Shown here: one piece after another, positions 35,801 to 64,000 of the stretch | How positions within the stretch are numbered: position 1 is the first letter of the stretch | Layout: the number at the start of each line of letters is the position of its first letter | NCBI GenBank assembly: GCA_973895155.1 | Contig: OZ316891.1 | Coordinates: 21,216,169-21,280,168 of the forward strand | Length of the DNA stretch: 64,000 bases | Source of the DNA: Marsupella aquatica | Taxonomy: Eukaryota; Plantae; Marchantiophyta | Direction of reading: 5' to 3' | Position numbers and translations under genes: made by a program | The notes under the pieces: generated by a model | What the model saw: the letters and a program-made list of their open reading frames with translations, nothing else | What the model was told of the DNA's origin: nothing | The model's database searches: none

Positions 35801-36080
35801 TAAACCATCCCAAGTTAATTTTGGCACACGACAGAATCATCGGGCTACTAAGCAGCTCTGCCCTTGGCCTCGACAGCGCAAGGTTACTCAGCAGCTCGCC
35901 CTTGGCCTCGACATCGCAAAAATAGCAGCCTCTGCCCTTGCGAATTGATCTGCGCCCTCTTTACTGCTCTGTGTGTGTGTCCTGCAGTCCTTCATTTACT
36001 CTTTGACGGTGTGGCCACAAGGAGCCGGTGAGCTATCCATCTTTTCGCCAAGTGTGGATCTTGGAGCAGTGCGCCTACTG

Positions 36081-37308
36081 ATGGAGATGCCCACAATGCC
36101 AGGGAGTCTTGATATGCAGCAAGTCCTTCCTCCAATCGTGCACGGCGAGGAGCATGAAGATTTCTGGAGAGGAGATAATGATAGCCAAGATCATGGAGAT
36201 ACAGGCTTCATGCTGTTGTTGCTTGCAATGGCTATGCAGGCATATCTCATAATGCTCGATACATTCCAACCAATTGAGCTGGCTCGGGAGAATCAGGTGA
36301 CTGTGAACCCAAGAAGACCAGTAGATGACCTACTCTCTAAATACTCTCAAACTCCACAATTGTTCAAGGACCTCACAAATTTCACTCTTGAAGAATTTGC
36401 AGAGCTCTTGAAGAATTGTTTGTCCCACCATAGAACAGAATGCTAGGTCTAGTGGATTATCTCATAAGCTGAAAGGTCGCCCTAGCAAATTGACCCCAGA
36501 ACAGAGATTGCTTAGCTACGTCTTTTACATGAAGCATGACAACACAATTTATTTTGATGCTGCTCATTGGAATTGGGCAAGATCATCAGTATGTGATGAT
36601 GCCATTTTTGTAGCTTCTTGTGTAAATCAAGCCTTGGCCAATGAGATCCGATGGCCTAGTGTCGATGAGAGATTGGAGTTGGGGAATGTCATCACCAACT
36701 TGCCTGGATGCATAGGATTTGTTGATGGCACCTTATGCAAAATTTGCAGGCCCTTTGATGACCCCTATCACAGTAAATGGTATCAAGGGCGGAAAAAGAT
36801 GTATTGCTTTAATTCCATAGTGCTAGTAGATCATAATGAACTTTTTATCTAAGTTGACCCTGGCTATCCTGGTAGTTTCCATGATGTCACAATTCTGAAG
36901 GATTCTTGGGTGGACAAGAATTGGAGAACCCAATTTGCAAATCAGGATGACTACTATGAGTATTTGCTTGGCGATCAGGGATACACAAGCATGGAGAATT
37001 ATGTGATGAGAGGTTTCAGTAAGGTGGAAATCCGAGCTATGGAATTGGATGAAAGCCTGGTGAAGATATTCAACAAGATGCACTCGGGATACAGAGTCAA
37101 GGTGGAGTGGGGAATTGGTGGTATGAAACAAAAATGGAGGCAGGTGCAGAAAAGATTTGATCTTGTGAGACCTAAGTTTGCCATCACATTTAGGGCAACT
37201 GCATTGCTCACCAATTTCCTGCATAGGCGAAGGAGGGATATGAGAGTAGAAATAATTGGTCCTAGGGTCAGAGGAGAAGAGAACAAGGGATGGGCTAGCG
37301 AGTTTTGA
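36081..37308 (+). pseudogene. Harbinger/HARBI1-like DDE transposase (frameshift ~36410, stop at 36850)
   Basis: FKDLTNFTLEEF, TPEQRLL, IRWPS, catalytic GFVDGT, YPGSFHD, LLGDQGY and RVKVEWGIGGMKQKW, then LTNF. Confidence 0.9.
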
Positions 37309-37827
37309 AACCTTGGGAGCTCATGAGAGTGCTCTTGGGCTCAACATTTGTTATACAGTCTGCACTGTCGTGTGCACAATTGAGAGCACACTTGTTGAAA
37401 GCACACTTGTTGCTTCAGTATCTAAAGCTATGTCTGTCCTTTAGGGGATATATGCATAACTCTTCATGAATAAAATTATCAGTTACCTTTCAAATGGCTG
37501 AGTAATGGTTTTTTGTGAGTACGTGGATTCAGTCTAGCTTCAGAAACTACAGTCCATTGCAAACATTTGCCTTTATGAAGAAATTGAAGACCTTGGAAGA
37601 CAATGACAACACACAGAAGCTCAAATGCATGAACGTGTTTTTTATTGATTTCACTCATGAATAATTTGTGTTACATGCAATAAAATTGCTCCCAGCACAA
37701 AATTCTATATGAGATCAAAACTGGCCAAGTACATAGACTACAAAATTGGTCAATTGCATGTGTGAACTACTTATATTTGCAAAAGTGGTCGAGTACATGA
37801 TCACTCTTGCCACTTCACAAACTATAA

Positions 37828-39930
37828 CTACAAGAGTCCAAAAGCAACTTTGCATTTTTCTTTGAACTCGTCCTCACTTATCAGCTCCAATGCTCGCTGC
37901 GTAATGTAATGTCTGCCAACACATTTTGCTTGGCTTGAAATGCGCTTCTCTCTTCTGATTCTTTTCTCCAAGCTGCAGATTCTGCTTGACGAGCCAAGGA
38001 CTCCTCTTGCTTTGTTTTCTCATCCAGGCCCTTCTCAGAAGTAATGCTTTTAAACATCCCCATCATCTCATCAAGGTTCTCCCATGCTCGCTTCAGGCTG
38101 TCCTTCTTGGTGGGAGGCTTCTTTTTTGTGTCATCACCTGGATTTGTGGATGGGGTGACTGGTCGGGGTGGTGCCACAGATCCAGAACACTCTGGATTAC
38201 TCACTGCAGGGCTGTTTGTGCCAGCCATAGCCCCTTCCCTAACTTTCAAAATGTTCCTGGCCTTCCAGGAAGGGGTGTCCTTTAGCTTAAACATCAGATT
38301 TGCATCTTGCAGAGTTGCTCCATCCCCGTTCTTAGGGTTGTTCACTCCTGACTGCATATCTTTGAGGCTGTCCCTTAGATGGTCTTCAAGAGTCTCCTCC
38401 TCAAATGGTGATCTTGGAAATATCGCCTTGTAGTCAACATAGATCTTCTCCCACACCTTAGCTGGGACAAGTTGTTTCACTTTTTGCTTTCGCCCTTTGC
38501 TGAATTCAGAAAAATGTTTCCAATAAGCTCTCACCAGAGGGCCAACGTGATCATTGTCCACCACCTTCCTCACCTTCTGTTTTTTTTGTTTCTTTAGAGA
38601 CCTTCTCCATCACTCTTCTCACGATTCTTCTGTTTTCGCTTGGGCTGCATCTATAGACTCTGTCCAGAGGACTCGCTTCCAGAATTGTCACTCTCCGAGG
38701 TAGCAGCCATTTCCTCTTCCTTATTGCTGCTGCTACTATCCGACAAGGTGACTTGCTGGGGGCTTTCAAATACCATATGCCCAGAAACTAGATTGTCTAC
38801 CTCAGCATCAACTGTGGATGGGTGGACTGTGGTATCCAAGCAAACAAAGCTGTGATTCACGAATCCAAACTCCTTCACCTTGTTGTCCAAGATCTCCACC
38901 GCGAAATTGGCCATCCCTCATGAGAAAGTGGGACAATAAAGCAAGAGTGAATTGAATCTAATTGATTACATGCAACTCAGAATGAAAGAAGAGGCCAATT
39001 CAATCCACTCCATCGCAAGCTACAAATACAGAGACATCCACCATGATAGCAATTGAAATAAGACTAGCATTTTCATCACTGTGCTCAATTAATTCAAATG
39101 GTCTCGGTAGCACTTCAATTTTTAGAAGTCCAAAGCGAAGTACAGGTTGATTATTCAGGACCAAGGCCAAATTAACATAACAATGCTCTATTCATGAACA
39201 CAGAGCTTTGATCAAGGATTAGCTAAGGGTTGTGTTCACTATAGTATGAATCAAATAGATCCAAACAAGCACAGTCGAAGGCAGATACTGATGGAAATTG
39301 ATGTTTTGCCCCAGTGTCCAGATTGATCGCAATCATCGATCTTGAGTGATGCCAGGTACTGATTTGCAGACAAAGATTGATACTAAACGTACTGAATCGG
39401 AAATCCACTTCATGATTCCACTAAAAGAGATCAATGTTCCTCTCTCTTGATTCCACTCGATTGCTCAATTGACCACATTGGAGCTGCAACAAACGAATTG
39501 CACAAATCCAGCCATAGCTTTATTGTATATGCTTTCCATTCCTCGTTTGCTGAACGGGAGAGTTTGAAGTAATTAGGACATGCCTGGATTGTTCTTGTCA
39601 CCCTCGTCTGCTGTTGTTGCCACCTTGCTAGCCAGCTCAAGATTGATGGGCGCTACAGGGTGCTCTGCCACGCGTTCTGCTTGCAATGTCAAGCCCCCTC
39701 CCAGTGTTGAACACTCTAAAGGTGCGAGCACTTCAGGAGATACCCCGCTCACCTCCCGGCTCTCGTTTGATGGTTGTTTTGCTCTCATCTTGCTCACACC
39801 CTTCTTTTTCGTGTCTCTTGAGATTGCCTCCATTGTGCCTACGTCGAGCACTATCATTCGGCTTCAAAGCTCCCTCTCTGCTGCCATTTCTAATGAATCC
39901 TCACCCTCAACGTGCTTGCAGCGCCTATGA
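37828..39930 (-). pseudogene. Second Harbinger ORF (Myb/SANT-trihelix-like DNA-binding protein) with a long decayed N-terminal region
   Basis: LVRAYWKHFSEF...KVWEKIYVDYKAIFP...LEDHLRD resembles a trihelix/SANT pattern, followed by a Pro/Lys-rich linker and a helical C-terminus. Upstream fragments (38651-38914 and beyond) read on through stops and frameshifts. The 5' limit is uncertain. Confidence 0.6.
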
Positions 39931-40677
39931 TCTTGGAGAGAAATCCCTAATCCAGACTGAAAACTTTTTTCTACTCGTTGCACACCAAGAAATTTTCTCA
40001 CTCGGCTCTTGGTCACTTTGTATGTGAGTAAACTAACCTGAGTTAGTTTTCAATCGGTTCATCTTGGGTTTAAGCTAGCTGCCCTCCACTCATTCGACAT
40101 TTTCTCACTTTATGGATATCTTTATTGTCAATAAAGATATTCTAATTTACAATATAAATATTATTTTTATTGTATATTTACAAATATGTCATGGTTTTTC
40201 TATATTCAAACCTTGGTTACTTTGTTGCACCTGTCATCTTTACACAAAATTGGGATGTATTTGTAAATACACCAAAAAAACATGGTAGTATTTTCAATTT
40301 GAACATCTTTCGCGTCAAAGTAAGTAAAAGTTGTTGACCCTTTTTGGTAATAGTCATTTTTCTCATTTTGAGTAATTATCAGAGAAAATGGTGCCCAGCT
40401 AGAGGCCTTCTTGGCACAGAGTAGAACAATGTTTTTTAATACATGGAGGGAAACCAAACAAGAAACAGCTCGGCCATTCTTCTCAACCATACCATGCCAA
40501 AAGGAATAGGTGTACATGTCCAATTAACTTTCCCCCCATTCCATGCGTCCACATCGATTCTCCACCAAATCATCGTCATCAAAGACTAGTTTATTTCAAT
40601 ATAAATAAATAGTTTTGTCCTTTATAAAATGAGTCAATCATAGCCCTTCATCAAAAATTATTTTTTTGGGTACCATT

Positions 40678-41021
40678 TGTTAGATATTGCTCTAGTCTTG
40701 TGACTCATGAGCTAACCATAGTTAGTCTAACTTGGGTTAGGACTTAGCTAATGTTAGCAGTAGTGCTGGTGTGCATATAGCCAGGGCTGATGCCAGACCC
40801 TGGTGGAACTTAGGCTCATTGTTACGGAGCTAGTTGAGAGATAGGGAGAGCTTGTGCTGTGGATGCTTGGTGTGGCATGTTGGCCTAGAGTGCAGTAAAG
40901 CTCTTGTGTGTTCCCGTGGACGTAGCCTCATGTGGAGGTGAACGACATATCTCTCTGTGTCGACTCTTGTGCGTTGGATGATTCATGGGCTTGCCATTGC
41001 AAATGTCGTCTATGCTCAACA
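40678..41021 (+). repeat. Copia 5' LTR (344 bp)
   Basis: Direct repeat of 58384-58726; by eye about 17 substitutions plus 1 indel. Confidence 0.97.
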
Positions 41022-41750: not shown

Positions 41751-42215
41751 TGTAACCCTTTGTGTGTGTACAAACACACGACCCTGGCCCTATGTACTAG
41801 TATACCCCCCCGCACCCCGATTTTTGCAGCTGGCTGCGTTTACCCTCCCGGCCCTTTGCGATCCCGTGAACAGGGGCTCGCTGCCCCATCCTGCGCCCCC
41901 GTCGTGCCTTAGGGTTAACATGCGACCTGCCGGCCGCGTTTAAGCCCTGCCCGGCCCTGCCTTCGACTTGACCCTTTGCGAACCCTATGGCTCGCCCTTG
42001 CTCTGACTGCCTGCCTAGCGAGTCGGGGCCGCGCCTTGACTTCCACCCCCGGTCTGATTTTTGGTTATACATGGCTGCGTACACAGGTGCTTGTATCCCC
42101 TGTGCGTAATCCTGCCTGGCCCGCCTTTTGTTTATACTTGTATTTTTGCTAAGGGGCACTAACCACCCCCTTTAAGGCACTTTTTATAGCATTTTTTCTT
42201 CCCCTTTTGTTCACA
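41751..42215 (+). mobile_element. Probable 3' LTR remnant of another LTR element
   Basis: Begins TGTAAC right after a PPT-like aagggggtt and ends gttcACA exactly where the truncated chromovirus 5' LTR begins. It has no matching TSD and no second copy in the window. Confidence 0.5.
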
Positions 42216-43422
42216 ACGGGCTAAGGCACTCCGCTTGCGGATGCCTATCAAGAAAGTTATGGGCGTTGCCAGTTGGTGGCGCGCCCATTATGCACGATGG
42301 GATCTGGGTTGGGGGCCAAATGTTTAGGGACCAAAGTTGGTCCGGGGGTGGCAGGTCTCCAGAAGCATATATGAGGGGAGTGGTGTCTCCCTGGGGGCTA
42401 AGGCCGAGCCAAAGTCGCGAACGCAGCGGTCGCGACACTAAGGGAAACCGTCAAACAGAAATAGCGATATCTTCCCAACGGGAAGTCCTCCAAAGTCCGT
42501 TGGAGGACTTCTTAGGTGCGTTGGAAAGCTCTTGAGGAGGGCTACGCCCTCCTGAGCTCAGCTGGGTCTGGGGGTGCCATGGGTTCTCGTGGTTTGTGGG
42601 TGTTAGCTCGCCCACTTGCCAAATCCTGCCGAACAGCAGCCAAGCCGCGTTCAGCCTCCCAAGAGAGCTTGCGTTGGGGAGGCAAGGCCAAGTAGGTATG
42701 GAGGCTGAGTCCCAAGGGCGCTCGGTCCCTAGACCATGAGTGGGGCAAACCGGGAGTGAGTGTTAGAGTCGGGGCCGTTCTGGTCCCGACGTGTTGAGAC
42801 AAGCTTGGGACAAGCTTTAGGACAAGCTACGCTATTTGGGCCATGAGCATGTCCTGAGGTCAGGACGGTCAGTTGGTGATGGATAGGTACGAGGGGGAAC
42901 CCGGGCCGCGCCCAAGGAAGGAGCTATCCTGGACGGACAGTGGGCGTGGGTTCTGGTTCCGGCTTATGGCATCGGGAGGACCCATCGCTGACCTATTTAC
43001 CAACGTCTGTTGAGCTTGAGTTAGGATGCTAGACTTGGCGAGTTCTAGATCCGGAGGGGTTACTTATCGAGGTGCTTGGTTGCTTGTAGAGACAATGAGG
43101 ACCGTTGAGTAGCGGTCGTGTAGGTGAGCAAGTGTGGCTTCGTATGGGAGGGGCCGCAGGTGGTGCTAAAGGCACTTGGATGCTTGCTCGAGGTATTCCA
43201 TGGAGGCGTTCGGGCACCAAGGGCACTTAGGCGCAAGTGTTGGGATTGGTGAGGGCGCTGGGTGGCGAGGTCCACCACTTGTGGTATCAGAGCGATTGCC
43301 GGCTTAGACACCGGGCCGGGGTCGTGCTTAGTCGGAATCCAAAAATTAACGGATTTTTGCGGGGTCTTAGTGCTTCAACGTGCCCGGTGGGTCGACTGCG
43401 GGCAGATTTGGTCACTGGGAAC

Positions 43423-46133
43423 ATGGAGAAAAACACTCGTGCAAAGAGTGGCAAGGAGGCTTCCCCCACCAAGGGGAGAGCCCAAGTTCACGATGAACAG
43501 AAGGAGGACGGGCCGACTTCCCTTGATGAACGTTACAAGCAAGATGAAGAAGATGCAACGGCCGAACCATCGACCGCTACGGCAAACAAATCAAGTGCAG
43601 AGCGCCGTCAACTTAATGGGAAGGAGGCGGCTGATCCTTCAGAGGATGGGTCGGATGACAACAACTCTGACACAACTGCAAGCAACGACAATGTTGAAGC
43701 TGAGACAGAGGAAGAGGGTTAGGACCCGGAAGAGGAACTGATCCCAGCCTTGAGAGGGTTGAATGCGGAAATAGGGGATGATGCCGAGCCGGACATCATC
43801 GTGGATAATTTGACCAAGCAGAACCAGGATGACGCAGGTGATACCTCAATCCCGGGAGGTCATGGTGCTCGCAAGCCGCGGGGGTGTCACCAAAATCCAC
43901 AAGAGAACCTAAGAACAGGCGGCCCGCTAAGGAAAGACGGTTGGAGGACCGTCCTCATACAACCCGTAAGGGCCCAGCCGCTGACGACGGTCTGGGTCCG
44001 TTGACTCAAGACCAACGACTCATCTATGAGCAATTGGAACACAACAAGGGGGCCCAGATTAAGTACTTAGTCTGGGTAGTCAGAGTACGTCCCGTCCCGA
44101 GGGGGGAATGGTAGTTGGACGGAGTATGTTCCAAGTGAACCAGCTACTGACTCCTCCAACTTATGACGGGGCCTACGAACAAAGTGGACAAAAGTTCCTG
44201 AGTTGGCTCTCCACGATGGAGATTCATCTCCAAGCGTGCGTTGAGCGTTCCACTTGGGCTCCCGCAGCCGCTCCTTACCTGAAGGACTATGCCTTGACTT
44301 GGTACAAGTCATGGAAGAAGTCGCGAGAGGACTCCTCCTTGCCGTTAACTTGGGAAAACCTGGTTGAGGGTCTCCGTGCTCATGTCACCACTAAGTACCC
44401 GGAGCGGCACGCTCAGAAATGCGTAACGGAGATGAGTTTCAGGGGTGATATCCAAAAGTTCATCACTTATTACCAGAATCAGTTGGCATGTATCTGGCGG
44501 GACAAGAGACCCTACATACACAGCCTCACAACTTTATCGTGAAGCTCCCGCCGTTGCTCAGGGAAAAGTTGCAGGAAAAGCGTCATGAGTTCAAAACGCT
44601 TTTTGACGCCTTCGACAAGGCCACTACCTTGGTGAATAACCGACCGGACTTGGCAAAGGTGGGTGGCAAGGGATCCAAGGGGGAAGCTGGGAAAGCAAAA
44701 GGTCCCGAGAATAAGCGTAAGCAACCTGAGGGGGCGGGGGCCGGTGGTTCGGATCCCCAGCCCCAGAATGGAGAAGCTAAGCGAAACCGGAAGGCCGGCA
44801 ACTTTAAGAAAGGAGCCTCATCGGCATAGAAAGCAAAGAAGCAAGCAACCATGGAGCAGAGGCGGGCTGAACGTTCGTGCTTCACATGTGGTGCCATGGG
44901 CCATCAAAGTAAGGATTGTTCCACGAAAGGTGGCAAACCAAACGGAGATGGTGGAGGGCAGAAGGGCATTAAGGTAAGTATCGCTCCAACCAAACCCTTA
45001 GTAGCTGAAAAGGTCCCTGTAGGGGATGTCCCTGATGGAGAGAGGGTGTTGTTGCGAGAGAAGATACCTAAAGTTAAGACAATGGATCCTGAAAAACTGA
45101 TTTTTGTGAATGTCACTTCTAACGGTAATCTAGGTGTTGCTTTGGTGGATACAGGCACGACCGCTTGCTTCATAAGTGGGCAGGCGTCAACTCGTCTTGG
45201 GGTGGACATGCAAGAGTTGTTACAACCGTTAGTGTGCAAGTTCACCAATGACACGAAGGGGATAGTGTCGAGAGTAGTGCATAGACTTCGGGTAGAGATC
45301 ATAGGCGAACAACAAAATTTTGTTAGTAAGGAGATGTTCTACGTTCTTGATGGTCTAGCCGTAGACTTCATTTTGTCGGTAGGTTATCTCAGAAAGCACA
45401 ATGTTACCTTGAAATCGGGGGGTGATGTGCTCCATTTTCCCAATAAGGGCGGTGAGCCCATCGTTGTACACGAAATTACCGAAAATAAAGAAAGATTTCT
45501 TAAAGTAAGTAAAGTGTCGTGGATGTCTCCGTGTGTATCGGCGAAGCAATGGTGGAAAGACTTCAAGGGTGGACATGAATGTTTCTTCTTTCATCTCCAC
45601 CCAACTAAGGAGGCTGCGTTGCAGCCAAAGGTCAAGTCAGCTAAGGTCGGGCCTGACTGCGGTCGAATTCCTGAAATTTTAGAGGAATTCAACGACGGGC
45701 TCTCACAAAAGCTACCTAAAGATTTACCCCCGCAAAGAGAAGTGGATCACCAAGTTGAGTTGGAGCCAGGATCGGCTCCTCAGGCTAAAGCTCCTTATCG
45801 TCTGAACCTGAATGAGCGAATGATGTTGAAGAATGCCTTGGAAGAGTTGATCGAGCAAGGGTTCATTTGCCCTAGTAAGAGTCCTTACGGGGCGCCCGCG
45901 CTGTTTGTGTCCAAAAAGGATGGTACTTTGAGATTGTGCGCAGATTATCGGGCCCTCAATAAGCAGACGGTAAAGAACAAGTACCCGTTACCTCATATGG
46001 ATGACCTCTTCGATTGCCTCTCCGGGGCTAAGAAGTTTTCAAAGGTGGACTTGCGGTCTGGGTATTACCAGATCCGCATGGCTAAGGGAGACGAGTATAA
46101 GACCGTGATGCGCACAAGGTTTGGATCCTATGA
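43423..46133 (+). pseudogene. Chromovirus gag-protease-RT (N-terminal part), with stops and frameshifts
   Basis: Gag (YLKDYALTWY...LTWENL), knuckle [14 protein letters not shown], protease ALVDTGTT, and [32 protein letters not shown]...DLRSGYYQI...RTRFGSY, which is cut by the insertion. Confidence 0.93.
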
Positions 46134-49100
46134 TGTGATGCCTAGCCAGGAATCACTCAGCCAGTTAAGTGGGTAAAGCAAGAGTGCACCCTAGAAACAC
46201 CTTAGTATAGGGACAAAACAAGGAAAATATAAACAATTAGGGGCGACTATGGAACCCGGGCCGAGGCCGGAGGTAAGGACGCTGGGGGTGAAAACAAGAT
46301 TAGGGTTAGGGTGCGCTAAGCATCGGCGGCTAGGAAGGATCAACGGGAGAAAGGACCGGAAGAGGAGAGGGGTAAGGAGCGCTTGCAGGAGATGGTGACT
46401 CATGTGCGAGCACAAACTAGGCAGACAACTACGGGAGGCCAACTACTGTCAGCTGCTTAGGCAAGCACTCGGGGAGAGAGTAGATACCGACGATCGACCT
46501 AAGGAGGGTATGAGCAACGTCAATCAAGCGGCACATTTCTGGGGATGCCTGTTCGAATGGGCAACTGAGTACATCAAGACTTACGAGGATGAAGAATCAG
46601 AAAGGGCAGCTCGAGAACGACAGGAGCTCGCTCGATTGTGGGAGCTGCAGAAGACGGCTTTCTTAGGAGGCGAACTCATCAAGGCCGAGTTCTTGTGGAC
46701 TCCTACTTCCAATTAGCTCGACGATCTTCTGTTTTTCGAAGACAGAATCATCGGCATTCGAGAGGCCATCAAGAATTGCAATGATATACACTGGGAATTG
46801 AAGGGTAGCACGGAAAAGTGGACCCAGGCAATGGTGCTAGGAGAAACCTCCACGGCAGCCGAGATGAAGAGGAAGGGAGCCGTCAACAATGAAGCCACCC
46901 TGGCAAAAAGAACGAGGTCGGCGGCACCAAAGAAGCCAGCCGAGCAGCAGAGCAGGAGGCAGGGAGAAGCCGAAGAGGAGGAGGTCGATCCCATCAATGC
47001 CATTCCAACCAGGGATGACACCTGGAAGGGCTGGGCGGCAACCCTACCAGCGGAGGTGCAACTACATTTTGCACGGGAGGAGGATGCATGCTTTACGGCC
47101 ATGCAGACCAAGAAGTACCAAGGCTTCATGGCCGGATTCGGCTTAGAGGCCTTTGTAAGATTACCATGGCTGAAGCCGGAGGTACCGGATTCAGACCTAT
47201 TAGAATTCGTGGGGTCATGGGAACCCGAGACCAATTGCACGAGGATATATGGGAAGGATTTCTATCTTACTCCCAAGGTGATTGTCGAAGTGTTTGGCTT
47301 GCCGATAGGCAATAAGACCAAAGTTGATACCAGGAAGACCTTGCCTGACAAGGAGTTCCGGTCGTTCCCCGGGCCATCAACGAAGAATGGCTTCTTCTGG
47401 AACACCTGCACCAACCCGCACATAGGAGAGATGATCGACTTCTTGCGGGTGACCATGCATTGTAACTTGCCGAGGGCAGAGATCGGCAAGGCACAGGTCT
47501 ATCTGGCAGAGAGGCCAGACCCAAGCCGGGACTACAATGGGTACCTCCTCAACCAATTGAAGAAGATCTTAAAGGAGGAGCAGCAGGTAATCGGCATGGG
47601 GAGCGTGTCGCGGCTTGGCTATCACATGCCGCTGTTGTGCCGGTATGCCAGAGGTCAGACCTTTGCCCCAGTACTTCCCCTGCAGGTAAGGGCACCCGAA
47701 GAAGCTCCAGCACCGAGGCCGGTAGCAGAGAAGCCTCAACCACCTATTAGCCCTACGATTGAGCAGGTGTTTAGGCCAAGGAAGGAAGACTTGCCGATGC
47801 AGCAACCAAGCATACAGAATCTGCTGAAAATGCTGGAGAAGGAAAAGACGGCACCGGCACCGGCTTTGGCAGCAGCACCAATACAGGACACTGCCCCAGA
47901 GGTCAACCTAAGCAGAATCAGGCCAAAATCCAAGCCGGGTTCGAATGTACGTGGGAGTCTCAAGCTCTGAATCTGAGGCAGAATTGCCTGAAGCTCCTAC
48001 CGACGAAGAAGAGAGGGAGAAGCCGGAAGTCCAAGAAGTAGAGGAGGCAGTGGAGGACTGCAGCCATGATAACTTCGGCTATGGGTCGGACCATCATGTT
48101 CCAGGAGTAAGGACCTGTGGCCGGTTTATCCCCACACTTCCAAGGGTAGTACGAGGGGACCCCAACCAGCAGAGTAGCCCTGAGTCTCCCCCACCAGATG
48201 TTGCTCCCCCGAGCTTTGACAGCATAAAACAGACGGCGTAGGAATTTCAGGAGCGAATCAGGTAGGAAGAGAAGGCAGCCCTGGCTAGGGAAAAGGATTT
48301 GCCAGGAGGAGATTGGCCGGAGGACATCAGGCGGCTAGCCGAAAAAGGAAGCAAACCTCTAGCCACGATTGAAGAGATCTGCAAGACGGCTTGGGAGCAG
48401 AGGCCGCGATGGGCGATGCCGATCACTTCTACTTATTCCACCTACGCTAAGAATAGAGCCATGGAGTATGGTGAGATGTGTGGGGAACTTGCGCTCGGCA
48501 TCTTTGGGGAGGAGTTGGAGGTAGGACCCTTTTTCCATAGGGAGCAGTTGGAGAAGCACCAATTAGAAGAAGCGGTGGCTTTAGAGAGAAGCAAGAAGGA
48601 CGAGGTCATCCGGCGGCCAAGAAATCCCAAGATGAACTGCGGATTAAGCGGCATGAGCTGAACATCATGCAGGGGCAGTTGGACACAGCGCAGGCTGATA
48701 ATCAGATTATCAAGGATAAACTGACTCAGACCCAGGGAGAATTGGTCGACGCAATCAAGGACAGGGAGAAATGGAAGAAGGAGTTGAGAAACGCAGAGGA
48801 GGCCCATATAGCAGTCAACAACCGGGTCACGGCGAAAACTCAGAGAAGGGAGAGGGCGTTGAAGGGGGAGCTCGAGAAAATCCGCGGAGTCCTTGAGCAG
48901 AAGGAGGCCGAGTTAGGGAAATCCTATCAAGGGATTATTGCGCTACAGCAGGAACTTGCATCCCTGACGGCCAGCTTCAAGGCCGACCTGCAGGAGAAGG
49001 ACACCCAGCTCGACCAGACTTATGCCAAGATGAATAACATGGAGTCTGAGGTCATAGCGAAGCTCGACAAGGAGCTAAGAGAAACCCAGGAGGAGAGGGC

Positions 49101-50737
49101 TACCACCAAGAAGGAATTGGAGGAAGCCCACAGGGAATTGGAGGAAGCCAAAAACGAGCTGGAGAAGGCACGTAAAGACCTGGATGAGACCCAGGAGGAG
49201 TTGGAGGAAATCACGAGGAAGATGGAGAACCTACAGCGGCGGGCTGACAACCAAACGGAGCGGCTGAAGAAACAAGCCGCAGTATTTAAATGCTTAGCTG
49301 CATCAGGTCCATCTCCCGTTGGGGCAAACCAGTTACCAGGGGTGGTAATTACCGAAGGACCAGCCGTGACACACGGCCCGGTGCCGGACATTGGCGACAA
49401 AAGGAAGAAACAGGTTGTGGAGATAGTGAAGAAGAAGAAGCGGAAACCTTCGGGGTCCGGAGGTTATTCGACCCCTCAAGCCGTACTCAAACCGGCACCA
49501 ACCTCCGGCATGAACACGACAATAGATTCCGCTATCACCAAAGGTGGGGATGGCGCGGCCCAAGCCGAACTACTCAATAATGAGGCCGATATCCCAGATC
49601 CACCTCTTGAGCAGGCCGGGGAGACAGTGGCTGAAGCCGAGGCTGAGGCCGTAGCCGAGAATGATTCCCGAGCCGATGCCGAAGCCGAGGGTGGGCCCAG
49701 TCAGGCCGATGAAAAGTTGACTCGGTCAGAGGCAGGTAATCTGTCAGAGGACGGACCAACGGCAGTGGTTGCGGAGGAAGCATTGGGGGCGTCCATTGAG
49801 GATCCACCATCGGTGTCGTGACGGTGCAAGGGTGTCGTTCCTTTTAGGAAGGGCGGACGTGGAGGTAGGAGGCGTGAGTGGGCAGGGCGGGCGCTGATTT
49901 CCAAGTTTAGGATTAGGATCAGGACCAGGAGCGGCCCTGACACTTAGCTTAGTGGGATTGCGGTTCCACTGGTAGGAGCAACACTTGTGCTCCTGCCTTG
50001 CTGTACATAGTTAGTTTCGGGCAGGTAGGTTACTGTTAGGTAGATTAGGCTTACGCTGCAAAGAATTAGGCGGATCCACTACCAGGATAAGTACTTGGGC
50101 AGCGGGGAGCTCAGGGCCTCTTCTTTAGCAAGTTTTTAGTTTGCACCAGCCGGGCTGGGATCAAGTAGTAAGAGAAGCTCTCGGTTAGTCATACCATGAC
50201 CTTGTGTATATTCATGTTTCCTCATGCCTAAGAGCTGAAATGAGTTGGCCTCACGGCTTAGTTCGCAGAGCTTGTGTATGAGATGTACTGTTTGTATGGC
50301 AAGTGCATGGTATGACTCAATCAGAAGGAGTTATTTTGCTATTTGTGTGTCGCATTAACTTGTGTGAAGAGTGCCCACATCAACCAGAAGGAAGGAAAGT
50401 AAACAAGGGAGTGAGAGTTGGATGTGTCGAGCTGAGAGAGGTCTTAGCGGTTTAACCAAGCCTATTGGGGATCATTCCAGCGGCGGAATCCAAACATACC
50501 TAACCAGAAGGAGAGGAAGACAAGGGAAGGCCTAGATTAGGCCGACTACATATCTCATGACCCGATGAAGGATCTGTCCAGTATATGTGTGTAAAAGGCT
50601 AATAGTAATAGTAGGAGGAGGTTAGCAGCGTCCCATGCCGCTAAGCCGCAGAAACGGCCTCGCCAAGCGCGAAACCTGCGGGAATCGGCTTGAGCTGGGG
50701 GGTTTCTTGGGTTTAGGGAGCCATGGGACGCACCACA
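46134..50737. mobile_element. 4.6-kb TG...CA insertion with a 5-bp TSD (giant solo-LTR-like element) carrying a coding gene
   Basis: TATGA|TGTGATGC ... GCACCACA|TATGA; removing the insert restores RT GSYEFLVMPFG. No internal direct repeats, PBS, gag or pol are seen. Confidence 0.9.
46249..49821 (+). pseudogene. ~1,190-aa protein: plant-mobile-domain-like region, Pro/Glu linker, long coiled coil, basic NLS and acidic tail; few lesions
   Basis: ORFs 46249/46402-46716 and 46798-47970 share a frame, as do 47945-48241 and 48299-48661; 48667-49821 joins by a frameshift. LEFVGSWEPETNCTRIYGKDFYLTPKVIVEVFGLPIG resembles the PMD motif (W.PET..F.....T..DV..ILGLP..G). Heptads ELEEAHRELEEAKNELEKARKDLDETQEELEE and KKKKRK follow. 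Confidence 0.75.
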
Positions 50738-51498
50738 TATGAGTTTTTGGTTATGCCTTTCGGGTTCTGTCCAAGATGGGCGTCCTGTGGCCTTCGAGTC
50801 ATGTAAGTTGGAAAATCACTGGATCGCGCCGGAAAGAAAAATGTATGTTGTGATCTACGCGTTGAAGAAGTGGGAGATTTACCTTAAGAATGGTCCCAAA
50901 GTGGTAATCCACACAGATAGCTCACCGGCTGGGTACTTCAGTTCTAAGCCTAGTTGTGGAAGCGGCTACCAAGGGTATGACCCTTGCCCAAAGTTGGTAC
51001 AAGGAGCAAGGGGATAAACATCGACGCCATGTAAGCTTTGAAATTGGGGAGAGCGTCTGGTTGCAGTTGAGATCTGAGCAATACCACGGGAACATAAGTA
51101 GGAAGCTGGCTCCCAGATATGCGGGGCCCTATCGCATTATACGATGGGCCCACAAGGATAATCTGGTTTTGGTGGTGTTGGAGACACCCAAGGAAATGGG
51201 CATAGGCAAAAGCTACCATGTTATCCGGCTCAAGAAGTTTATCAAAGACGATGATCCCAACCGGGATCAGGTCTTGCGTCCGGACACCATGTTGGTGGAG
51301 GACGCTGAGGAGTTTGAGGTGGAGGCAATTCTGGACCACCGGTACAAACACAAGTTGGGAAGGCAAATCTTACAGTATTTGGTGAAGTGGGCTGGCTACG
51401 ACCAGGCCGAGAGTACTTGGGAACCGGAAGAAAATTTGGGTAATGCCTCAGAGATCCTTGGAAGCTATCGTAAGCAAAGTGGCCTATCGTCATTGTAA
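50738..51498 (+). pseudogene. Chromovirus pol remnant: RT stub, partial RNase H, integrase C-terminus (GPY/F) and chromodomain
   Basis: YEFLVMPFG is joined directly to QDGRPVAFES...ALKKWEIYL, then to KLAPRYAGPYRII and EEFEVEAILDHR...YLVKWAGYDQAESTWEPEENL. Confidence 0.92.
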
Positions 51499-51956
51499 AC
51501 TGGTACAGGCAGCTGTAGCTACCTTTGTGAGTTGTATCCTAGTTTCATTCCTCTCGGCCTCTTAAGGATAAAGGCGGATTGCGTTGGTGCTAGAGGTTGT
51601 TGGGCGGCCAATTTGCTTTTTGCGAGTGGAAGTTGATGGTGCCCGCCCTACATCTGTGGGCGGGCTAGTTCAAACCAAAGGGGAGCGCCCCAAGGGGAGG
51701 ACAATGGGTCCGACGAGTTTGGAGTTAGCTTACCCGTTTGGACTGGCATCCTACTTGGATAAGTGGGATAGGTTGGAATTTCCTAAGTTTGGAATGCGCA
51801 TACCAACTTGGTTTGCATCAGCCTTATAGGCAAACCATTTGTTACCTCATAAAAATTTTTTAAGACCCAAAGTGGTCTAGGCGTGTTGGAACGTTTACTT
51901 CTAGGTCACGCGGACGTGCAAGTCGGGGTGCAAGTCGGGGTGCAAGTCAGGGTGCA

Positions 51957-53463
51957 AGTCGCGGAACTCGACTACCTTAACACTTAGCTCCGGCGTCGCT
52001 GACTTCGACGCCGAGCTCCCTTATGGTCCAGGCCCGGATAGGCCATCCGGGGAGGACTTAGCATGGGGAGACTTGTGGGCAATGAGACGTAGGACTAGCG
52101 AGGCAAGGGGCCAAGTTGGGGACACACACTAAGGACTTGGACTAGCCTATGGCTGGTAGGGTCAAGGAGAAATGGGCCGGGCTCAAGGATGGCCGTCCGG
52201 ACCGTCAGAGGGGCTTTGAGTTCTGAGGGCTTGGGAGTGAGCTCCTCTTGGACCCAAGGCCAATGGAGTTGACGCCATTGGCAACGGACGCTTGGGGCGC
52301 AAGTTGTGGCCCGATCCGGGTTGGGCTGGTCGGGGCCCCAAGCGGCAATCAGACCTGAGAGCCTAGGCATTAGCACGGGGTCGGCCCGGTCACAACGGGC
52401 TAAGGCACTCCGCTTGCGGATGCCTATCAAGAAAGTTATGGGCGTTGCCAGTTGGTGGCGCGCCCATCGTGCGCGATGGGATCCGGGTTGGGGGCCAAAT
52501 GTTTAGGGATCAAAAGTTGGTCCGAGGGTTGGCAGGTCTCCAGAAACATATATGAGGGGAGTGGTGTCTCCCTGGGGGCTAAGGCCGAGCCAAAGTCGTG
52601 AGCTGCGGCAGTCGCAACACTAAGGGAAACCGCCAAACGAAAATGGCGATATCTTCCCAACGGGAAGTCCGTTGGAGGACTTCTTAGGTGCGTTGGAAAG
52701 CTCTTGAGGAAGGCTATGCCCTCCTAAGGTCAGCTGGGTCTGGGGGTGCCATGGGTTTTCGTGGTTTGCGGGTGTTACCTCGCCCGCTTGCCAAATCCTG
52801 CCGAACAGCAGCCAAGCCGCGTTCAGCCTCCCAAGGGAGCTTGCGTTGGGGAGGCAAGGCCAAGTAGGTATGGAGGCTGAGTCCCAAGGGCGCTCGGTCC
52901 CTAGACCATCAGTGGGGCAAACCGGGAGTGGGTATTAGAGTCGGGGCCATTCTGGTCCCGGCGTGTTGAGACAAGCTTGGGACAAGCTTTAGGACAAGCT
53001 ACGCTATTTGGGCCATGAGCATGTCCTGGGGTCAAGGCGGTCAGTTGACAATGGATAGGTACGAGGGGGAACCCGGGCCTCGCCCAAGGAAGGAGCTGTC
53101 CTGGACGGACAGTGGGCATGGGTTCTGGTTTCGGCTTATGCCCGGGCTTATGGCATCGGAAGAATCTATCGCTGACCTATTTACCAACGTCTGTTGAGCT
53201 TGAGTTAGGATGCTAGACTTGGCGAGTTCTAGATCCGAAGGGGTTACTTACCGAGGTGCTTGGTTGCTTGTGTAGACAGTGAAGACCGTTGAGTAGCGGT
53301 CGTGTAGGTGAGCAAGTGCGGCTTCGTATGGGAGGGGCCGTAGGTGGTGCTAAAGGCACTTGGATGCTTGCTCGAGGTATTCCGTGGAGGCGTTCGGGCA
53401 CCAAGTGCACTTAGGTGCAAGTGCTGGGATTGGTGAGGGCGCTGGGTGGCGAGGTCCACCAGT
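51957..53463 (+). repeat. Chromovirus 3' LTR (~1.5 kb), starts AGTCGCGG
   Basis: Matches 42211-43279 from position 52390 onward, and matches the reverse complement of 59954-61431 over its whole length. Confidence 0.93.
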
Positions 53464-53924
53464 TGTCGGGATTTGCCGGGACTTGCCGCCCTCCGTTTTA
53501 ACCGCTCTGACAGGGGAACGGCCCCCTGTGAGACCTGCTATACTGTGTGGGAATATTCCCCAAAAACCAGAGAGCTGTTTTTTGGCCGTCCAACAAAGAT
53601 TCTGTCTGTCAAACGGTAATGTTTTTGGTTGTTTCTCGGTGAGGACGTTGCCACTGGAGTTAGCAATGCGGCGCACCAATCACATTGCAATTCCGACGAC
53701 GGGTTGTACTTGGTAGTTTGGTTATTCTCCGAGGTGGTCAAAATGGGGAAGTTTCCCAAGGTTTTACCCACCCGGACCAAAATTTGAATAACTTTTCTGT
53801 AGAATTTTGATTTTGATTTCGGCTTTCAGTATTGGACTCCTAGCTTCGTGGGCTACGCGGCGGTGTTGAGCTTTGAGTTTTATGAGAAGTTTTGAAAAAT
53901 GAAATTTTTTCGTGATTGTTTCAT

Positions 53925-56900
53925 ATGAGTGACTCGGAGGATACTGGAAGAATTGGCGTCGGTGGAGCTTCAGGATCACGACGATCAGATGGTGAGTCTG
54001 AGGAGGAGCTGCTACTATTTGAGGAGGAACTAGTGACAACGGTACAATCATCGGTGCGGCGTGCAGTGGAGGAAGCTGTTCTACTACCAGAGCTGTCAAT
54101 AGTAGAGAAGAAGAGGGAGATGGCTAGATTTGGAGGAGTGAAGTTTGAGGTGGAGAAGTACAATGGACGTACTGATTACTTGCTTTGGGAGAAGCAAGTG
54201 AAGGGTGTTCTACGGGCCATGGGCTTAGCTCATCTGCTTTCTTTGCGAGAGCAGTATGATGGAGAGGAGGAGATTTTTGTGAGACAGTGGAAATAGGAGC
54301 AGGTGATTGCTGTCAATGCAGTGATGCTATATCTCAAGCCGCACATCATCAAGCAGTTGGATGATTATGCGGATTGCGAATCACTATTCAAGGCTCTAAC
54401 AGAGAAGTACTACCTAGAAGATGCGTCTGATCGGCTGTACAAGAAGTCTTTCTTGATGAGCCTCAGGCTCAAGGAAGGGAGCAAGATGCAGGATCACCTG
54501 GATGAGTTTGACAGTCTAGCGGTGGATCTGTTAAACCTGCGAAAAGGAGTTGAAGATGAGGATAAGGCCTTGCTTCTGCTAAACTCCTTACCGCCATCAT
54601 ATCATGGCTTGAAATAGGTGCTCTTGTACATTGATCTGAAGTCTATTTTGTATAATGAGGTGGTGAGCTCTTTATTGTCTGATGATGCTCAAAAGAAGTT
54701 GGATTAATCACAGATAACATCTTCTTCTGGCACTGTGCAAAATGTGAACCGTGGAAGAGCAGCGCATCGCACGAATGGGCAGAACAGATTTAGATCTACA
54801 TCACGGGGGAGATCTAAATCCAGAGGGAAATCGCAAGAGAGGAAGCCTCTTGCATGTTGGAATTGTGGCAAGCCATGCCACATGAAAAGGAATTGTCGAG
54901 TAAAGGTCCCTACTGCATCTGCTAACGCGGCATCGAGCTCGCATGAGGTAGATTTACTTGATGATGATGACATATTGTGATGCCAAGGTTATGCTCTCAA
55001 TGTAGTGTCAAATCCAAGTAGTGATGACTGGATTCTAGATAGTGCATGTACTTTTCACATTTGCTCTAGGAGAGATTTTTTCAGTTCTTACACGGTTTCC
55101 AACGGGTCAGTGTTGATGGGAAATTGAATCCCATGTCAAGTTGTTGGACTTGGATCTGTAAGATTTCAGATGTTTTATGGTGCTGTAAGAACATTGAGGA
55201 ATGTGAGACACATTCCTAGCATGATGAAAAATCTCATTTCACTTGGAGTTTTAGAAGCAAATGGCCATCAGTGGAGTTCTGCTAATGGTGTTCTTCAGGT
55301 TTCAACTGGTACTAAAGTTGTATTGAAGGGAAAGAGACATAGCAATCTATACGTTTTGGAGGGCAATGTAGTTTGTGATGAAACCAATGTAACCTTATCT
55401 CATGAGGAGACGGCCCGGCTGTGGCACTTCCGTTTGGGCCACATGAGTGAAAAAGGTTTGGTTATTCTTCAGAAAAAAAAAGATTACTTTCTAATTGCAG
55501 TCTTGTAAGTTGGAATTTTGTGAGCACTGTGTGCTTGGGAAGCAGCACAGAAAACCCTTTGGCGTTGGAGCTCACACCAGCAAGGAGGTACTTGAGTATG
55601 TACATGGTGATGTGTGGGGTCCAACCCCTACTCCCTCACATTCTGGATAGTTATACTATGTCACGTTCATAGACGATTACTCAAGGTATGTGTGGATATA
55701 CTTTATACACAATAAGTCTGATGTTTTTGCCACTATTAAGGAGTGGAAAGCCCAAGTTGAGAATCAGGCTGGTAATAAGGTGAGATATCTTCGATCAGAT
55801 AATGGCGATGAATACAAGTCCGGGAAATTTGGAACATATTGTAAGGAGCAGGGGATTACCCGCCATCTCACAACAAGTTATACTCCTCAACAGAATGGTG
55901 TTTCTGAGAGACTCAACCAAACACTATTGGACCGCTCGAGGAGTATGTTGAGTCAATCATGCTTACAACATGAGTTTTGGGCTGAAGCTATCAGCACTGC
56001 AGCTTATTTGGTAAATTTTTCTCCATCTAGTTCTATTGGATTCAAGATGCCATTTGAAATGAGATACGGGTGTCCAGCAGATTACTCACATCTGAGGATT
56101 TTTGGACGTGATGCTTATGTGCTTACACCTTCCCAGCTTCGATCCAAGCTGGAATCCAAGTCAAAGAAGTGCATTTTCCTTGGCTATCAGAAAGGTGTGA
56201 AGGGTTATAGGTTATGGGATCCAGTAACCTGTAAACTAATTGTCAGTAGAGATGTGTCCTTTAATGAATCCAGATCATCAAAGGAGGGGGAGAGTTCTCA
56301 GGACTCCCATACTGACAAGGGGAAATCTCCCATCCCAGACCGGGTTAAAGGGGAGATTAGTCATGATGATGTTCATGACAGGAGAGATGGAGAAGCTCCG
56401 AGTTTGGAGCTGGTTCTTGTGATGGAACAAGAGGAGTAGGTTGTTGTTGGGGTACCTCAAATTCAGCCAGCAGCAACAGCAGATCAGCCTGAGTCATCTA
56501 CTAGAAGAACTTCCAATCGTTCTACTAGAGCTCCTACCAGGCATGGTCAATGGGCAGACTCATCTAAGTTAGATGATATTGACATTGCACTTGATGATGA
56601 TGACATGGCTTTGATCCACAGTGAGGCTTGTGCTTCAGAGCAGAAGCATGAGTGGAATACAGCAATGCAGAGGGAGTTGCAATCTTTGAGTGACAACAAG
56701 ACATGGGAGTTGGTGGAGCTTCCAAGAGGTCAGTAAGTGGTGGACAGCAAGTGGATTTACAAGTTGAAGGAAAGTCCTTCAAAGGGTGGAGATAAGATCT
56801 ACAAGGCAAGGCTTGTTGCCAAGGGGTTCACTCAGGAGAAAGGAGTGGACTACAATGAGGTCTTTTCACCTGTGGCTAAGTATTCCATAATTCGGATCTT

Positions 56901-58176
56901 GTGTTAGCTTGTTGTGTTTTTTGATCTGGTGATGGATCAGATGGATGTTGTTACTGCTTTTCTCTATGGCAACTTGGAAGAGATGATCTTCATGAGACAG
57001 CTAGTAGGCTTTATGAAGAAGGGCCAAGAGAACTTAGTTTGTAGATTGCTCAAGTCCTTGTATGGATTGAAGCAATCTCCCAGATAGTGGAACAAGCGGT
57101 TTGATAATTTCATGTTTGCTCAAGATTTTACAAGGATGATGTATGATCCTTGAGTGTATACAAAATCAGTCAAGAATGATGTGTTTGGTTTCATCATTCT
57201 GGTTATCTATGTGGATGACATGTTGATTGTGGCTAAAGATCAATCTGAGGTTGACAATCTCAAGGCGAAATTGAGTTCTGAATTTAGGATGAAGGATCTT
57301 GGCAAGGCCAAGAGGATCTTAGGGATGGAGATTTTTAGGAACTCAGATACTGGACAATTGTGCTTGAGTCAATGCCAGTATGCGAGGAAAGTACTTGCAC
57401 GATTCAACATGGATAACTGTAAGCTAGTGAGTATTCCTTTAGCTTCACACTTCAAGTTATCATCGGCTTTCTCTCCTATGGATGCTATGGAGAAAGGTTT
57501 GATGGCTAAGATTCCTTATGAGAAGGCAGTAGGCAGTCTGATGTATTTGATGACTTGTACTAGGCCTGACTTGGCCCTAGCGATGGGCAAGGTTAACAAA
57601 TCAATGTCAAATCCAGGGAAGGTACATTGGGAAGCTGTGAAGTGGATTCTCAGGTATGTGAAGGAAACATAGGACTATGGATTACTATTTGATAATAGAT
57701 CAAATAGAACGTTAGTTTGCTAAGTAAATTCTAACTATGGAGGCTGTCTGGACACAAGGAGGTCTACAACTGGGTTTGTATGTACTCTTGGAGGAGGATG
57801 TATCAATTGGAAATCTACCTTGCAGAAGTGTATATCTTAGTCTACTATAGAAGCAGAGTATATTGCAGCAGCAGAAGCAGCAAAGGAAGCAATTTGGTTG
57901 GAAAAGTTGATTGCGGAGATGGGTTTAGAGCATGGCAAAATGACTCTAAACTGTGATAGTCAGAGTGCTCTTCACTTAGCTGCTAACCAGGTGATGGATA
58001 GCAGGGTGAAGCACATTGATATCAGGTACCATTTTATCAGGCAAGCAGTGTCTGATAAAACTTTTGAGCTAGTCAAGATTGATGGAAAGCTCAATCCCGC
58101 TGATGCCTTTACCAAAGTGATTCCTTTGGAGAGTTTCTCAAGACACCGTGCTACTTTACAGGTTTTGCAGTTGTAG
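53925..58176 (+). pseudogene. Copia gag-pol polyprotein with many premature stops and frameshifts
   Basis: KFEVEKYNGRTDYLLW, knuckle CWNCGKPCHMKRNC, protease WILDSACTFH, GAG-pre-integrase LWHFRLGHMSEKG, integrase LRSDNGDEY/TPQQNGVSER/GYRLWDP, RT ARLVAKGF/YVDDMLI, and RNase H CDSQSAL/KHIDIRYHF/NPADAFTK. Confidence 0.96.
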
Positions 58177-58383
58177 TGCAAGTAGAGTTATTTAGCAATG
58201 TGTGACTATTTGTATATGGATTACTCATTCCAGTTTGGCTACGACTTAGTTCTAGTTAACCCTTAGTTAACCCTTGTGGTTTTTAGGGGGAGACCTGGTT
58301 TGGTGATTGTCTAGAACTTCCCGCTGAGGATTCCATATGGTAACAATTAGTCCAGTCCCCAAGACAAGAGTCAAGGGGGAGTT

Positions 58384-58726
58384 TGTTAGATATTGCTCTA
58401 GTCTTGTGACTCATGAGCTAACCACAGTTAGTCTAACTCGGGTTAGGACTTAGCTAATGTTAGCGGTAGTGCTGGTGTGCATATAGCCAGGGCTAATGCC
58501 AGATCTTGGTGGAACGTAGGCTCATTGTTACGGAGCTAGTTGAGAGATAGGGAGAGCTTGTGCTGTGGATGCTTGGTATGGCCTGTCGGCCTAGAGTGCA
58601 GTAAGCTCTTGTGTGTTCTCGTGGACGTAGCCTCATGTGGAGGTGAACCACGTATCTCTCTGTGTCGACTCTTGTGCGTTGGATGATTCATGGGCTTGTC
58701 GTTGCAAATGTCATCTATGTTCAACA
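58384..58726 (+). repeat. Copia 3' LTR (343 bp)
   Basis: Direct repeat of 40678-41021, preceded by the PPT and followed by TSD CCATT. Confidence 0.97.
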
Positions 58727-59953
58727 CCATTGGATCCAACTGGACACTCCTCCCACCTCAAATGTCTGTTTCACGCCTACCCTCACTTGCCCAAAATGGA
58801 AACTAAACAAATTTTCAAAAATTTCAAAATATTATTTAAATATATATTCATAGTAGTTTTAAAAACAAAAACAAAACAACACTCCCTCGTATCGCGTGAC
58901 CATGTCTGGACACCTTGGGGTCTCACTATATGGCGGCCTCCCCATCACCTGCGACATTTTTAGTCCTCGGACCTCCATAACGTAAGCCCATTCACTAAAC
59001 TTTGTCCTCCCCAACAACATTTTCACAACAACAATGACAAACATTCCTGTGCTTTTTATTCTATCATGGTCTTCTTAAAAAAATATGTTTTTCGTGCCAA
59101 GGAAAGACTGGAAAGCAAAATGTGGAAGGGGAGACCCAACAAAATTGGAAAAAGGCGAGAGGCCCATGGATGGGAAGATAGGCTGGGAGTGGGAGGCTAA
59201 ATGTATGAGAAAAGGGGAACAGACTCATTTACGCAAAGACATCCTTTAAAATGCAGCAAATTCTTTTACATACCTACATCTTTTACTCCATGACATCCTT
59301 GGCACGACAACATAATTTCCGCAATTATATGTTTTGCGTCTTATGCGCAAGGACATATTTTATGCAGCGTCATCTTTTGGGTAACAACTTCTTTTACACT
59401 AAAAATCTTTTGTATGACAATTTAACATCTTTTATGCAATGCAAAGGTATTGAGCTAGTTCTGCATAATAAGCAAGCACCCAAAAGTTCAAATATTTTTG
59501 TGAAGCCTTAATAGCTGATTATAGTAATTATGTAACATTGTAAAAAGAACCTCAACCAAGATTTCCTCCTCAAGTCCTTGCAACACTTAATCGTTCCCTT
59601 TTCTTTCTAAAAAGGGGGAATGAAGGAAAAGAGTTGTTGAACTTGATAGGAAGCTCAAAAATTCCAAGATGGGGCCTAAAGTATGAGAGGAAAAATACTT
59701 GAGGGAAATTTAAAAAAAGAAAGCTACTATTATTGATTGGAGAATTTCATCTCAACTTGAAGATTGTGCAACTAGCTGTAGTTAGCTTGAAATGTTTTCA
59801 CTGTCTTGAACATCTAATCTGAATTCTCCATTAGATTGTTCCATGTCCTCTACTGTGAGTGCAACACCCTTTCCAACCCTTGACATTGGATTGGGTAGCT
59901 TAGTTTGCTCCCGTTCCATCCCTCCATATTTGAATCCTGGTTGGCTGGCCCAC

Positions 59954-63843: not shown

Positions 63844-64000
63844 AGTGGTGGACCTTGCCACCCAGCGCCTTCACCAATCCCATCACTCACACCTAAGTGC
63901 CCTTGGTGCCCGAACGCCTCCACGGAATACCTCGAGCAAGCACCCTAGTGCCCCTTGCACCACCCGCGACCCCTCCCATATGAAGCCGCACTTGCTCACC
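63844..64000 (-). mobile_element. Another LTR of the same chromovirus family, running off the window end
   Basis: agtggtggacct.gccacccagcgcc.tcaccaatccca... matches 59954 onward. Confidence 0.92.

Follow-up and report, generated by a model that had tools for sequence, protein, structure and literature searches.

Insertion and gene at the locus

A window of 64,000 bp from the genome of the liverwort Marsupella aquatica (GenBank assembly GCA_973895155.1, contig OZ316891.1, positions 21,216,169 to 21,280,168 of the forward strand) was analyzed, and all positions below are those of this window. It contains a 4,604-bp insertion, likely a solo long terminal repeat (LTR), which carries an open reading frame (ORF) of 1,190 codons. 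The insertion interrupts the reverse transcriptase (RT) region of a chromovirus, which is older than the insertion. The features of the insertion and its host element are as follows.

42211..53466, plus strand: host chromovirus of the Ty3/gypsy group with gag, zinc knuckle, protease, RT, RNase H and chromodomain; RT interrupted by the insertion
46129..46133, no strand: left target-site duplication (TSD), TATGA
46134..50737, plus strand: insertion, 4,604 bp, likely a solo LTR with TG...CA ends from a high-copy Ty3/gypsy-like family outside the chromoviruses
46226..46233, plus strand: TATA-like AATATAAA, putative promoter; no other TATAWA match occurs on the two strands of the element
46249..49821, plus strand: sense ORF of 1,190 codons (3,573 nt), ATG at 46249 to TGA at 49819-49821
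47041..47667, plus strand: globular domain of 209 aa, conserved in unnamed proteins; its predicted fold matches residues 292-529 of the VANC21 chain
47668..48240, plus strand: proline-rich and acidic linker, likely disordered judging from its sequence
~48604..49290, plus strand: coiled coil of ~230 aa, with 21-nt (one-heptad) repeats at 49084-49227
49429..49446, plus strand: KKKKRK, predicted nuclear localization signal, with a KRKK cluster just upstream
49549..49818, plus strand: acidic tail rich in Ala and Glu
49822..50737, plus strand: 3′ non-coding part of the LTR, 916 bp, putatively 3′ untranslated region (UTR), R and U5
50628..50734, plus strand: long terminal hairpin beside the end that faces the putative primer-binding site (z −4.5 and z −4.1 in two folding tests)
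50738..50742, no strand: right TSD, TATGA; in other copies, a sequence resembling a primer-binding site (PBS) follows here

The insertion begins with TGTGATGC and ends with GCACCACA, and these termini form an inverted match at 7 of 8 positions. The perfect 5-bp TSD, TATGA, is found on both sides of one unit without gag-pol. By a rough estimate, such a TSD would arise by chance with a probability of ~1e-3, and such an inverted match, with the ends fixed, with a probability of ~4e-4. Contigs from uninterrupted copies of the host element diverge from the window at 46129-46133 and carry on with host RT sequence, and thus the insertion site is confirmed. Neither a second copy of the insertion in the window nor an inner repeat was found by self-BLAST, and no gag/pol domain was detected in the four pieces of the insertion that were scanned. 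An initial annotation, made from the letters of the window, had described an integrase-style insertion of this length and with these ends (TG...CA, 7/8, perfect 5-bp TSD), without paired LTRs or gag/pol, and both parts of this description are borne out.

The terminal hairpin at 50628..50734 folds on both strands and was rejected as evidence for orientation. No unusual structure was found at the 5′ end of the insertion, and Rfam returned no match at E ≤ 1. An 18-nt inverted repeat (89% identity; 50187-50204 and 50300-50317, 95 nt apart) lies in a T-rich region 3′ of the ORF and is a possible 3′ UTR structure.

Reading frame of the 1,190-codon gene

The ORF accounts for 78% of the LTR. The coiled coil, the KKKKRK motif, the acidic tail, and the TATA-like AATATAAA ahead of the ATG were all recognized in the initial annotation and are present. 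The gene had also been called lightly damaged, which understates its condition: the window copy has six lesions, consisting of four stop codons (46396, 46714, 48239, and 48263) and two frameshifts (near 47938 and 48617). A start of transcription from the TATA-like word at 46226 would fall near or just after the ATG at 46249; translation may therefore begin at the ATG at 46402 or 46510, or splicing may be involved. No transmembrane or hydrophobic stretch was found in the protein, and for this reason an env-like role was rejected.

Other copies of the family differ from the window copy at four of the six lesion sites. The stop at 46396 (position 46398) differs in 100% of the depth in four runs, the stop at 48239 in 98-100% of the depth, and the frameshift near 47938 in 70-98%. 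At the frameshift near 48617, extra sequence is present in other copies. These differences were read from 40 of 491 rows, and the stops at 46714 and 48263 fall outside those 40.

Nine non-triplet indels are among the differences listed. Eight of them are in the 916-bp non-coding end and one is in the 3,573-bp ORF (P ~2e-5), and that single case is the window copy's own break. Apart from it, the ORF has a single listed indel, 3 bases long. The scarcity of frame-shifting indels in the ORF supports selection to keep the reading frame, in line with the initial annotation. The 27 substitutions listed in the ORF (with 451 further sites beyond those listed) are spread over the three codon positions as 10, 10, and 7. 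This even spread is as expected from neutral decay of the window copy after its insertion, and is uninformative on selection in the family. The gene is real, while the window copy is dead and decayed after insertion.

Copies of the family and orientation of the probable LTR

Part of the insertion is present in nine of the ten sequencing runs listed, with seven organism labels among them, and in three runs the part is only a small share. In four runs, contigs matching 45700-51200 number from 6,005 to 27,404 per run, and 30 of 30 bins are covered in each. The insertion thus belongs to an abundant, high-copy family. Contigs that fit two places number only 2-6 per run. The strongest joints have a depth of at most 448 among the joints listed (79 further joints exist beyond those), far under the summed bin depths. 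Since all bins are covered in the four runs and the listed joints are shallow, no common form without the ORF is seen.

The left end is shared exactly by other copies. Contigs begin at 46134 with mixed flanks in the runs X1 (four contigs, agreement 0.56), X2 (eight contigs, 0.45), and X5 (three contigs, 0.58), and one contig of X6 runs from a foreign flank through 46134 to the start of the ORF. At the right end, contigs of X2 link 50737 with inner positions of other copies. Past 50737, 20 contigs of X2 have the consensus TTTTGGCGCTAGATGGAGGGG... (TTT-TGGCGC..., agreement 0.59), which is PBS-like. The junction of the Athila 5′ LTR and PBS is described, in the part of the ATHILAfinder preprint cited here, as the LTR end, an AT-rich spacer of 3-6 bp, and then TGGCGC (10.64898/2026.03.20.713144). 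The six bases TGGCGC are common to the two sequences, which diverge past them.

A primer site after 50737 places the LTR on the plus strand, and therefore the gene is sense. The initial annotation had placed the LTR on the minus strand with an antisense gene; this orientation is not borne out, as the PBS-like sequence follows 50737 on the plus strand and not the 46134 end. Its other proposal, a solo LTR with an accessory gene inside, is supported by the same junction and by the ends that other copies share exactly. A plus-strand solo LTR is the most likely identity of the insertion, and an LTR structure with a sense gene is proposed with high confidence.

No relatives of the locus were found in viral and prokaryote contigs. 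A scan of metagenome contigs gave 15 matches to the last 18 bases of the insertion, none extending past those bases, and they were judged to be due to chance.

Predicted fold and protein relatives

The 209-aa domain was modelled from an alignment of 25 sequences with pLDDT 78 and pTM 0.74; a model from the single sequence reached pLDDT 32. Foldseek placed VANC21 at rank 3 (E 2.7, TM 0.49), and every other row listed has TM ≤ 0.19. With VIA-align, VANC21 was the sole chain of 82 with Z ≥ 2 (Z 9.2, root-mean-square deviation (rmsd) 3.7, 197 residues aligned). An independent wide structure search gave the same protein as the only one with Z ≥ 2 among 48,161 chains (Z 9.0, rmsd 3.9, 202 of 209 residues). 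Sequence searches of PDB gave no match at E ≤ 10, and a viral fold library gave one unnamed weak match, A0A890CAY5 (E 0.042, TM 0.35).

VANC21 is reported to bind a nine-base motif and to cause methylation loss across its transposons (PMC5735166, cited part). According to the cited part of PMC13547354, VANC is a structural homolog of MAIN, and coiled-coil pentamers have been modelled both for VANC and for the Athila domain. The PMD proteins MAIN and MAIL1 take part in silencing (PMC5418596, cited part). On the predicted fold, the domain is likely to belong to the same superfamily as VANC and PMD, reached through the fold shared by VANC and MAIN.

A HMMER search of 1.84 billion proteins gave 21 matches at E ≤ 0.001, the best with 40% identity over 226 residues. 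Ten of the matches were looked up; four clusters are named by species, all from the liverwort Calypogeia fissa, which makes a bryophyte the likely host. One match, P0007, with helicase-associated repeats, was judged to be spurious and was kept out of the alignments. An alignment-based search gave two proteins, both from Calypogeia fissa, and word-indexed single-sequence searches among longer proteins and proteins of near lengths found nothing. Conservation among the relatives is restricted to 46990-47700. The longest relative likewise ends in a coiled coil.

No Pfam family was found at E ≤ 1 for the domain-bearing piece, nor any family for the domain in the 21 HMMER matches. PMD is not among the 25 families listed in a Pfam scan of the 25 aligned members. 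The protein has no Pfam match to PF10536 (PMD), PF03078 (ATHILA), or PF20167 (Transposase_32), and no DUF1985 or DUF287 domain was found in the protein or its relatives. By ESM language-model features, Transposase_32 and ATHILA come closest among the named families (0.88-0.90; 0.83-0.84 for a relative), and these are leads only. The PMD-like motif of the initial annotation is thus not recovered by sequence and is seen only at the level of the fold, through VANC21. The proposal of a PMD-related, possibly anti-silencing protein is supported by the match to VANC21 and by the VANC-MAIN homology reported in the cited part of PMC13547354.

The word AAGCCG was considered as a target motif. It occurs 18 times over the whole element, above all 100 shuffles, and was not counted, as the shuffles ignore codon structure.

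Host chromovirus and the surrounding window

The LTRs of the host chromovirus (42211-43282 and 52390-53466) are 92.5% alike, and the 5′ LTR is without the first ~430 bp present in the 3′ LTR. The 5′ LTR is followed at 43271-43284 by TGGTATCAGAGC, which we take to be a tRNA-Met primer site. Just past the insertion, at 50743-50910, a host RT motif is followed directly by RNase H and then by the end of the integrase and the chromodomain. These large internal deletions indicate that the host chromovirus is non-autonomous or decayed. Two copies of the host-family LTR are on the minus strand (59950-61431 and 63830-64000, 87-90% alike), and the copy at 59950-61431 looks like a solo LTR.

A 346-bp direct repeat (40676-41021 and 58382-58726, 95% alike, 17.7 kb apart) and remnants of copia integrase and RT (55651-57669) were also found; the repeats may be copia LTRs that enclose the whole gypsy nest. 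Harbinger-like remnants lie at 35949-38609, namely a piece of DDE_Tnp_4 nuclease (plus strand) and a second ORF that converges on it from the minus strand. An intronless ORF for lactate dehydrogenase (27204-28481, plus strand, 425 aa) has an N-terminal extension and is flanked by related repeats at 26.1-26.8 kb and 31.4-32.1 kb. On the minus strand, ~10984-18773 contains exons of an F-box/LRR gene, which presumably resembles bryophyte FBL15 (SLOMO).

Discussion

Solo LTRs and long LTRs have been described before, as have extra ORFs that encode PMD or ATHILA domains. The extra ORFs of published plant elements are internal, as described in the cited parts of PMC6317226, PMC11963269, and PMC4408406. 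No plant LTR containing such a gene was found in the literature by title and abstract start, a search whose coverage is partial, with most subscription papers outside it.

Athila (PF03078 ATHILA and PF20167 Transposase_32) is similar in the 5-bp TSD, the long LTR, and the order of LTR end, short AT spacer, and TGGCGC. It also has a sense accessory ORF with a predicted nuclear signal (PMC11728184, section 2.5), and ATHILA ORF-1 matches are 3′ and forward in 166 cases (PMC6317226, Additional file 4). The extra ORF of Athila, however, lies between pol and the 3′ LTR, while the ORF here lies between the TG and CA ends, inside the LTR. The protein here has no Pfam match to either family, and placement in this lineage, which depends on RT and integrase, is tentative.

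VANC21 of VANDAL21, a Mutator-like DNA transposon of Arabidopsis (PDB 9lnj and 9lnk), is a transposon-encoded accessory protein with a coiled coil as well, and the predicted fold is similar over the whole 209-aa domain. Several differences are clear. The identity is 8%, and DUF1985 and DUF287, named as VANC domains in the cited part of PMC5735166, gave no Pfam match here. The carrier is a retrotransposon LTR with TG...CA ends, a 5-bp TSD, and a PBS-like junction, not a VANDAL DNA transposon. VANC is described as dicot-specific in the cited part of PMC13547354, while this DNA is from a liverwort. Tandem target motifs like those of VANDAL were not found in the non-coding parts of the window copy, and the activity here is predicted from the fold alone.

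A combination of PMD (PF10536) and coiled coil is a known layout of extra ORFs in the Ogre/Tat group (PMC4408406, section 11). PMD ORFs of Ogre are internal and mostly 3′ antisense (431 matches; PMC6317226, Additional file 4), which differs from the gene here, without a PF10536 match. The moss Tat-like elements examined are described as having no extra ORFs in the cited part of PMC4408406. The sag gene of mouse mammary tumor virus (MMTV) is an accessory gene that lies within the LTR and lengthens it (cited part of PMC3026287); MMTV, though, is a retrovirus with an LTR of ~1.3 kb and an unrelated protein, in contrast to the 4.6-kb LTR with 78% coding content. The LTRs of non-chromoviruses reach ~5 kb (PMC6317226, cited part), and therefore 4.6 kb is at the known upper end of size, and the coding share of 78% is the difference.

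Taken as a whole, the insertion is probably a plus-strand solo LTR from an abundant family of Athila/Tat-like retrotransposons, with a sense gene whose product is predicted, from its VANC21-type fold, to bind DNA and would aid escape from silencing; this is proposed with moderate confidence. Given the LTR structure with a sense gene, anti-silencing, by analogy with VANC, is only slightly favored as the role of the gene.

Several observations weigh against this interpretation. Among the loose ends listed, the PBS-like end is displayed in a single run (X2), with 2,146 further loose ends beyond those listed. The PBS-like sequence is, on our assumption, complementary to the 3′ end of plant tRNA-Asn; the assumption is unconfirmed and is counted here as a weakness. 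Pattern scans for a tRNA that would confirm the primer gave no locus and then two loci, neither of them a tRNA gene; the window contains no tRNA gene, and no confirmation of the primer identity was found in the literature. On the supporting side, tRNA-Asn primers among Ty3/gypsy lineages are given in REXdb only for Athila (12%), TatII (15%), and Retand (4%) (PMC6317226, Additional file 5). The polypurine evidence is weak: a purine-rich stretch lies before 46133 in two X5 contigs, and other flanks are mixed. Among the contigs of the four runs, which are short, no full element with gag-pol between a pair of such LTRs was seen.

The protein side has its own weaknesses. Only the best of five models reaches pLDDT 78, the others ranging from 64 to 49. 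Foldseek alone ranks VANC21 third with E 2.7, the sequence identity to it is 8%, and Z scores under ~13, such as the 9.2 and 9.0 obtained, can be common in mainly helical domains according to the caveat of the tool. The N-terminal and middle parts gave no significant alignment with the longest relative. No enriched short motif or tandem array was found in the non-coding parts of the window copy (6-9-mers compared with shuffles). The fold family also includes the host silencer MAIN, and therefore the fold does not fix the direction of effect.

With the gene inside a solo LTR as described, it is conceivable, though unlikely, that its protein serves another role, such as a transcriptional activator of the LTR, a tether for integration sites, or a scaffold for RNA or particles. 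A common fold shows no function, the identity to VANC21 is 8%, and no repeated target motif was found. The acidic tail and the nuclear signal suit a transactivator, and no function is known for PMD and Athila extra ORFs according to the cited parts of PMC6317226 and PMC4408406 (section 11). Against such a role stands VANC21, the one structural match obtained, which is an anti-silencing protein of a transposon and whose structure was determined in complex with its target DNA. MAIN and MAIL1, its relatives in the host, likewise act on silencing (PMC5418596, cited part).

It is distinctly less probable that the insertion is the LTR of a non-autonomous, LARD-like element without gag-pol that was moved in trans, or a single unit inserted by integrase. 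No gag-pol linked to the insertion was seen, the copy number is very high, and the 50737 ends connect with interior positions in other copies, all of which would suit these possibilities. The conserved PBS-like sequence directly past the CA end points to an internal region and argues against a single unit, and the LARD-like version is compatible with it. It is very improbable, and largely refuted, that the insertion arose by deletion or recombination from an ordinary element whose LTRs are short and whose extra ORF is internal: published plant extra ORFs do sit in the internal region (PMC6317226 and PMC11963269, cited parts), but a complete 3′ LTR would repeat the 46134 start within the element and no such repeat is present, few contigs fit two places, and the 5′ end is joined to the start of the ORF in other runs.

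If the insertion is a solo LTR with an anti-silencing gene, the full element would consist of LTR, PBS, internal region, polypurine tract, and LTR, with LTRs of 4.6 kb, and recombination between the two LTRs would have left the window copy. The gene may descend from an Athila-type extra ORF at the 3′ side, which may have moved into U3 as the polypurine tract shifted upstream of it, giving the arrangement known from MMTV sag. Transcription would proceed from the TATA-like site at the 5′ edge of the LTR, or by way of splicing, and would end at the LTR's own 3′ signals. The protein would enter the nucleus, oligomerize through its coiled coil, bind a family-specific motif, and counter methylation by analogy with VANC. 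A gene in the LTR would be present in two copies per element, one of which would be kept in every solo LTR.

A wider proposal is put forward tentatively and is rather doubtful. A VANC-type, sequence-specific anti-silencing gene in the LTR may make each solo LTR a self-contained cassette that licenses the family in trans after the deletion of gag-pol. It may also unite VANC, PMD, and the Athila/Transposase_32 ORFs in a single superfamily of DNA-binding proteins, already carried by retroelements of early land plants long before the VANC of dicots.

What the extra ORFs of plant Ty3/gypsy elements do is an open question, as is the origin of PMD, from the host or from retrotransposons, which the cited part of PMC5418596 calls fully open. 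Through its predicted fold, this bryophyte family connects an accessory protein of a retroelement structurally to a protein whose anti-silencing role is proven. A gene inside the LTR survives recombination between LTRs, and this changes what solo LTRs can do. If the wider proposal is true, the main route by which the host removes such elements would become a route by which they spread.

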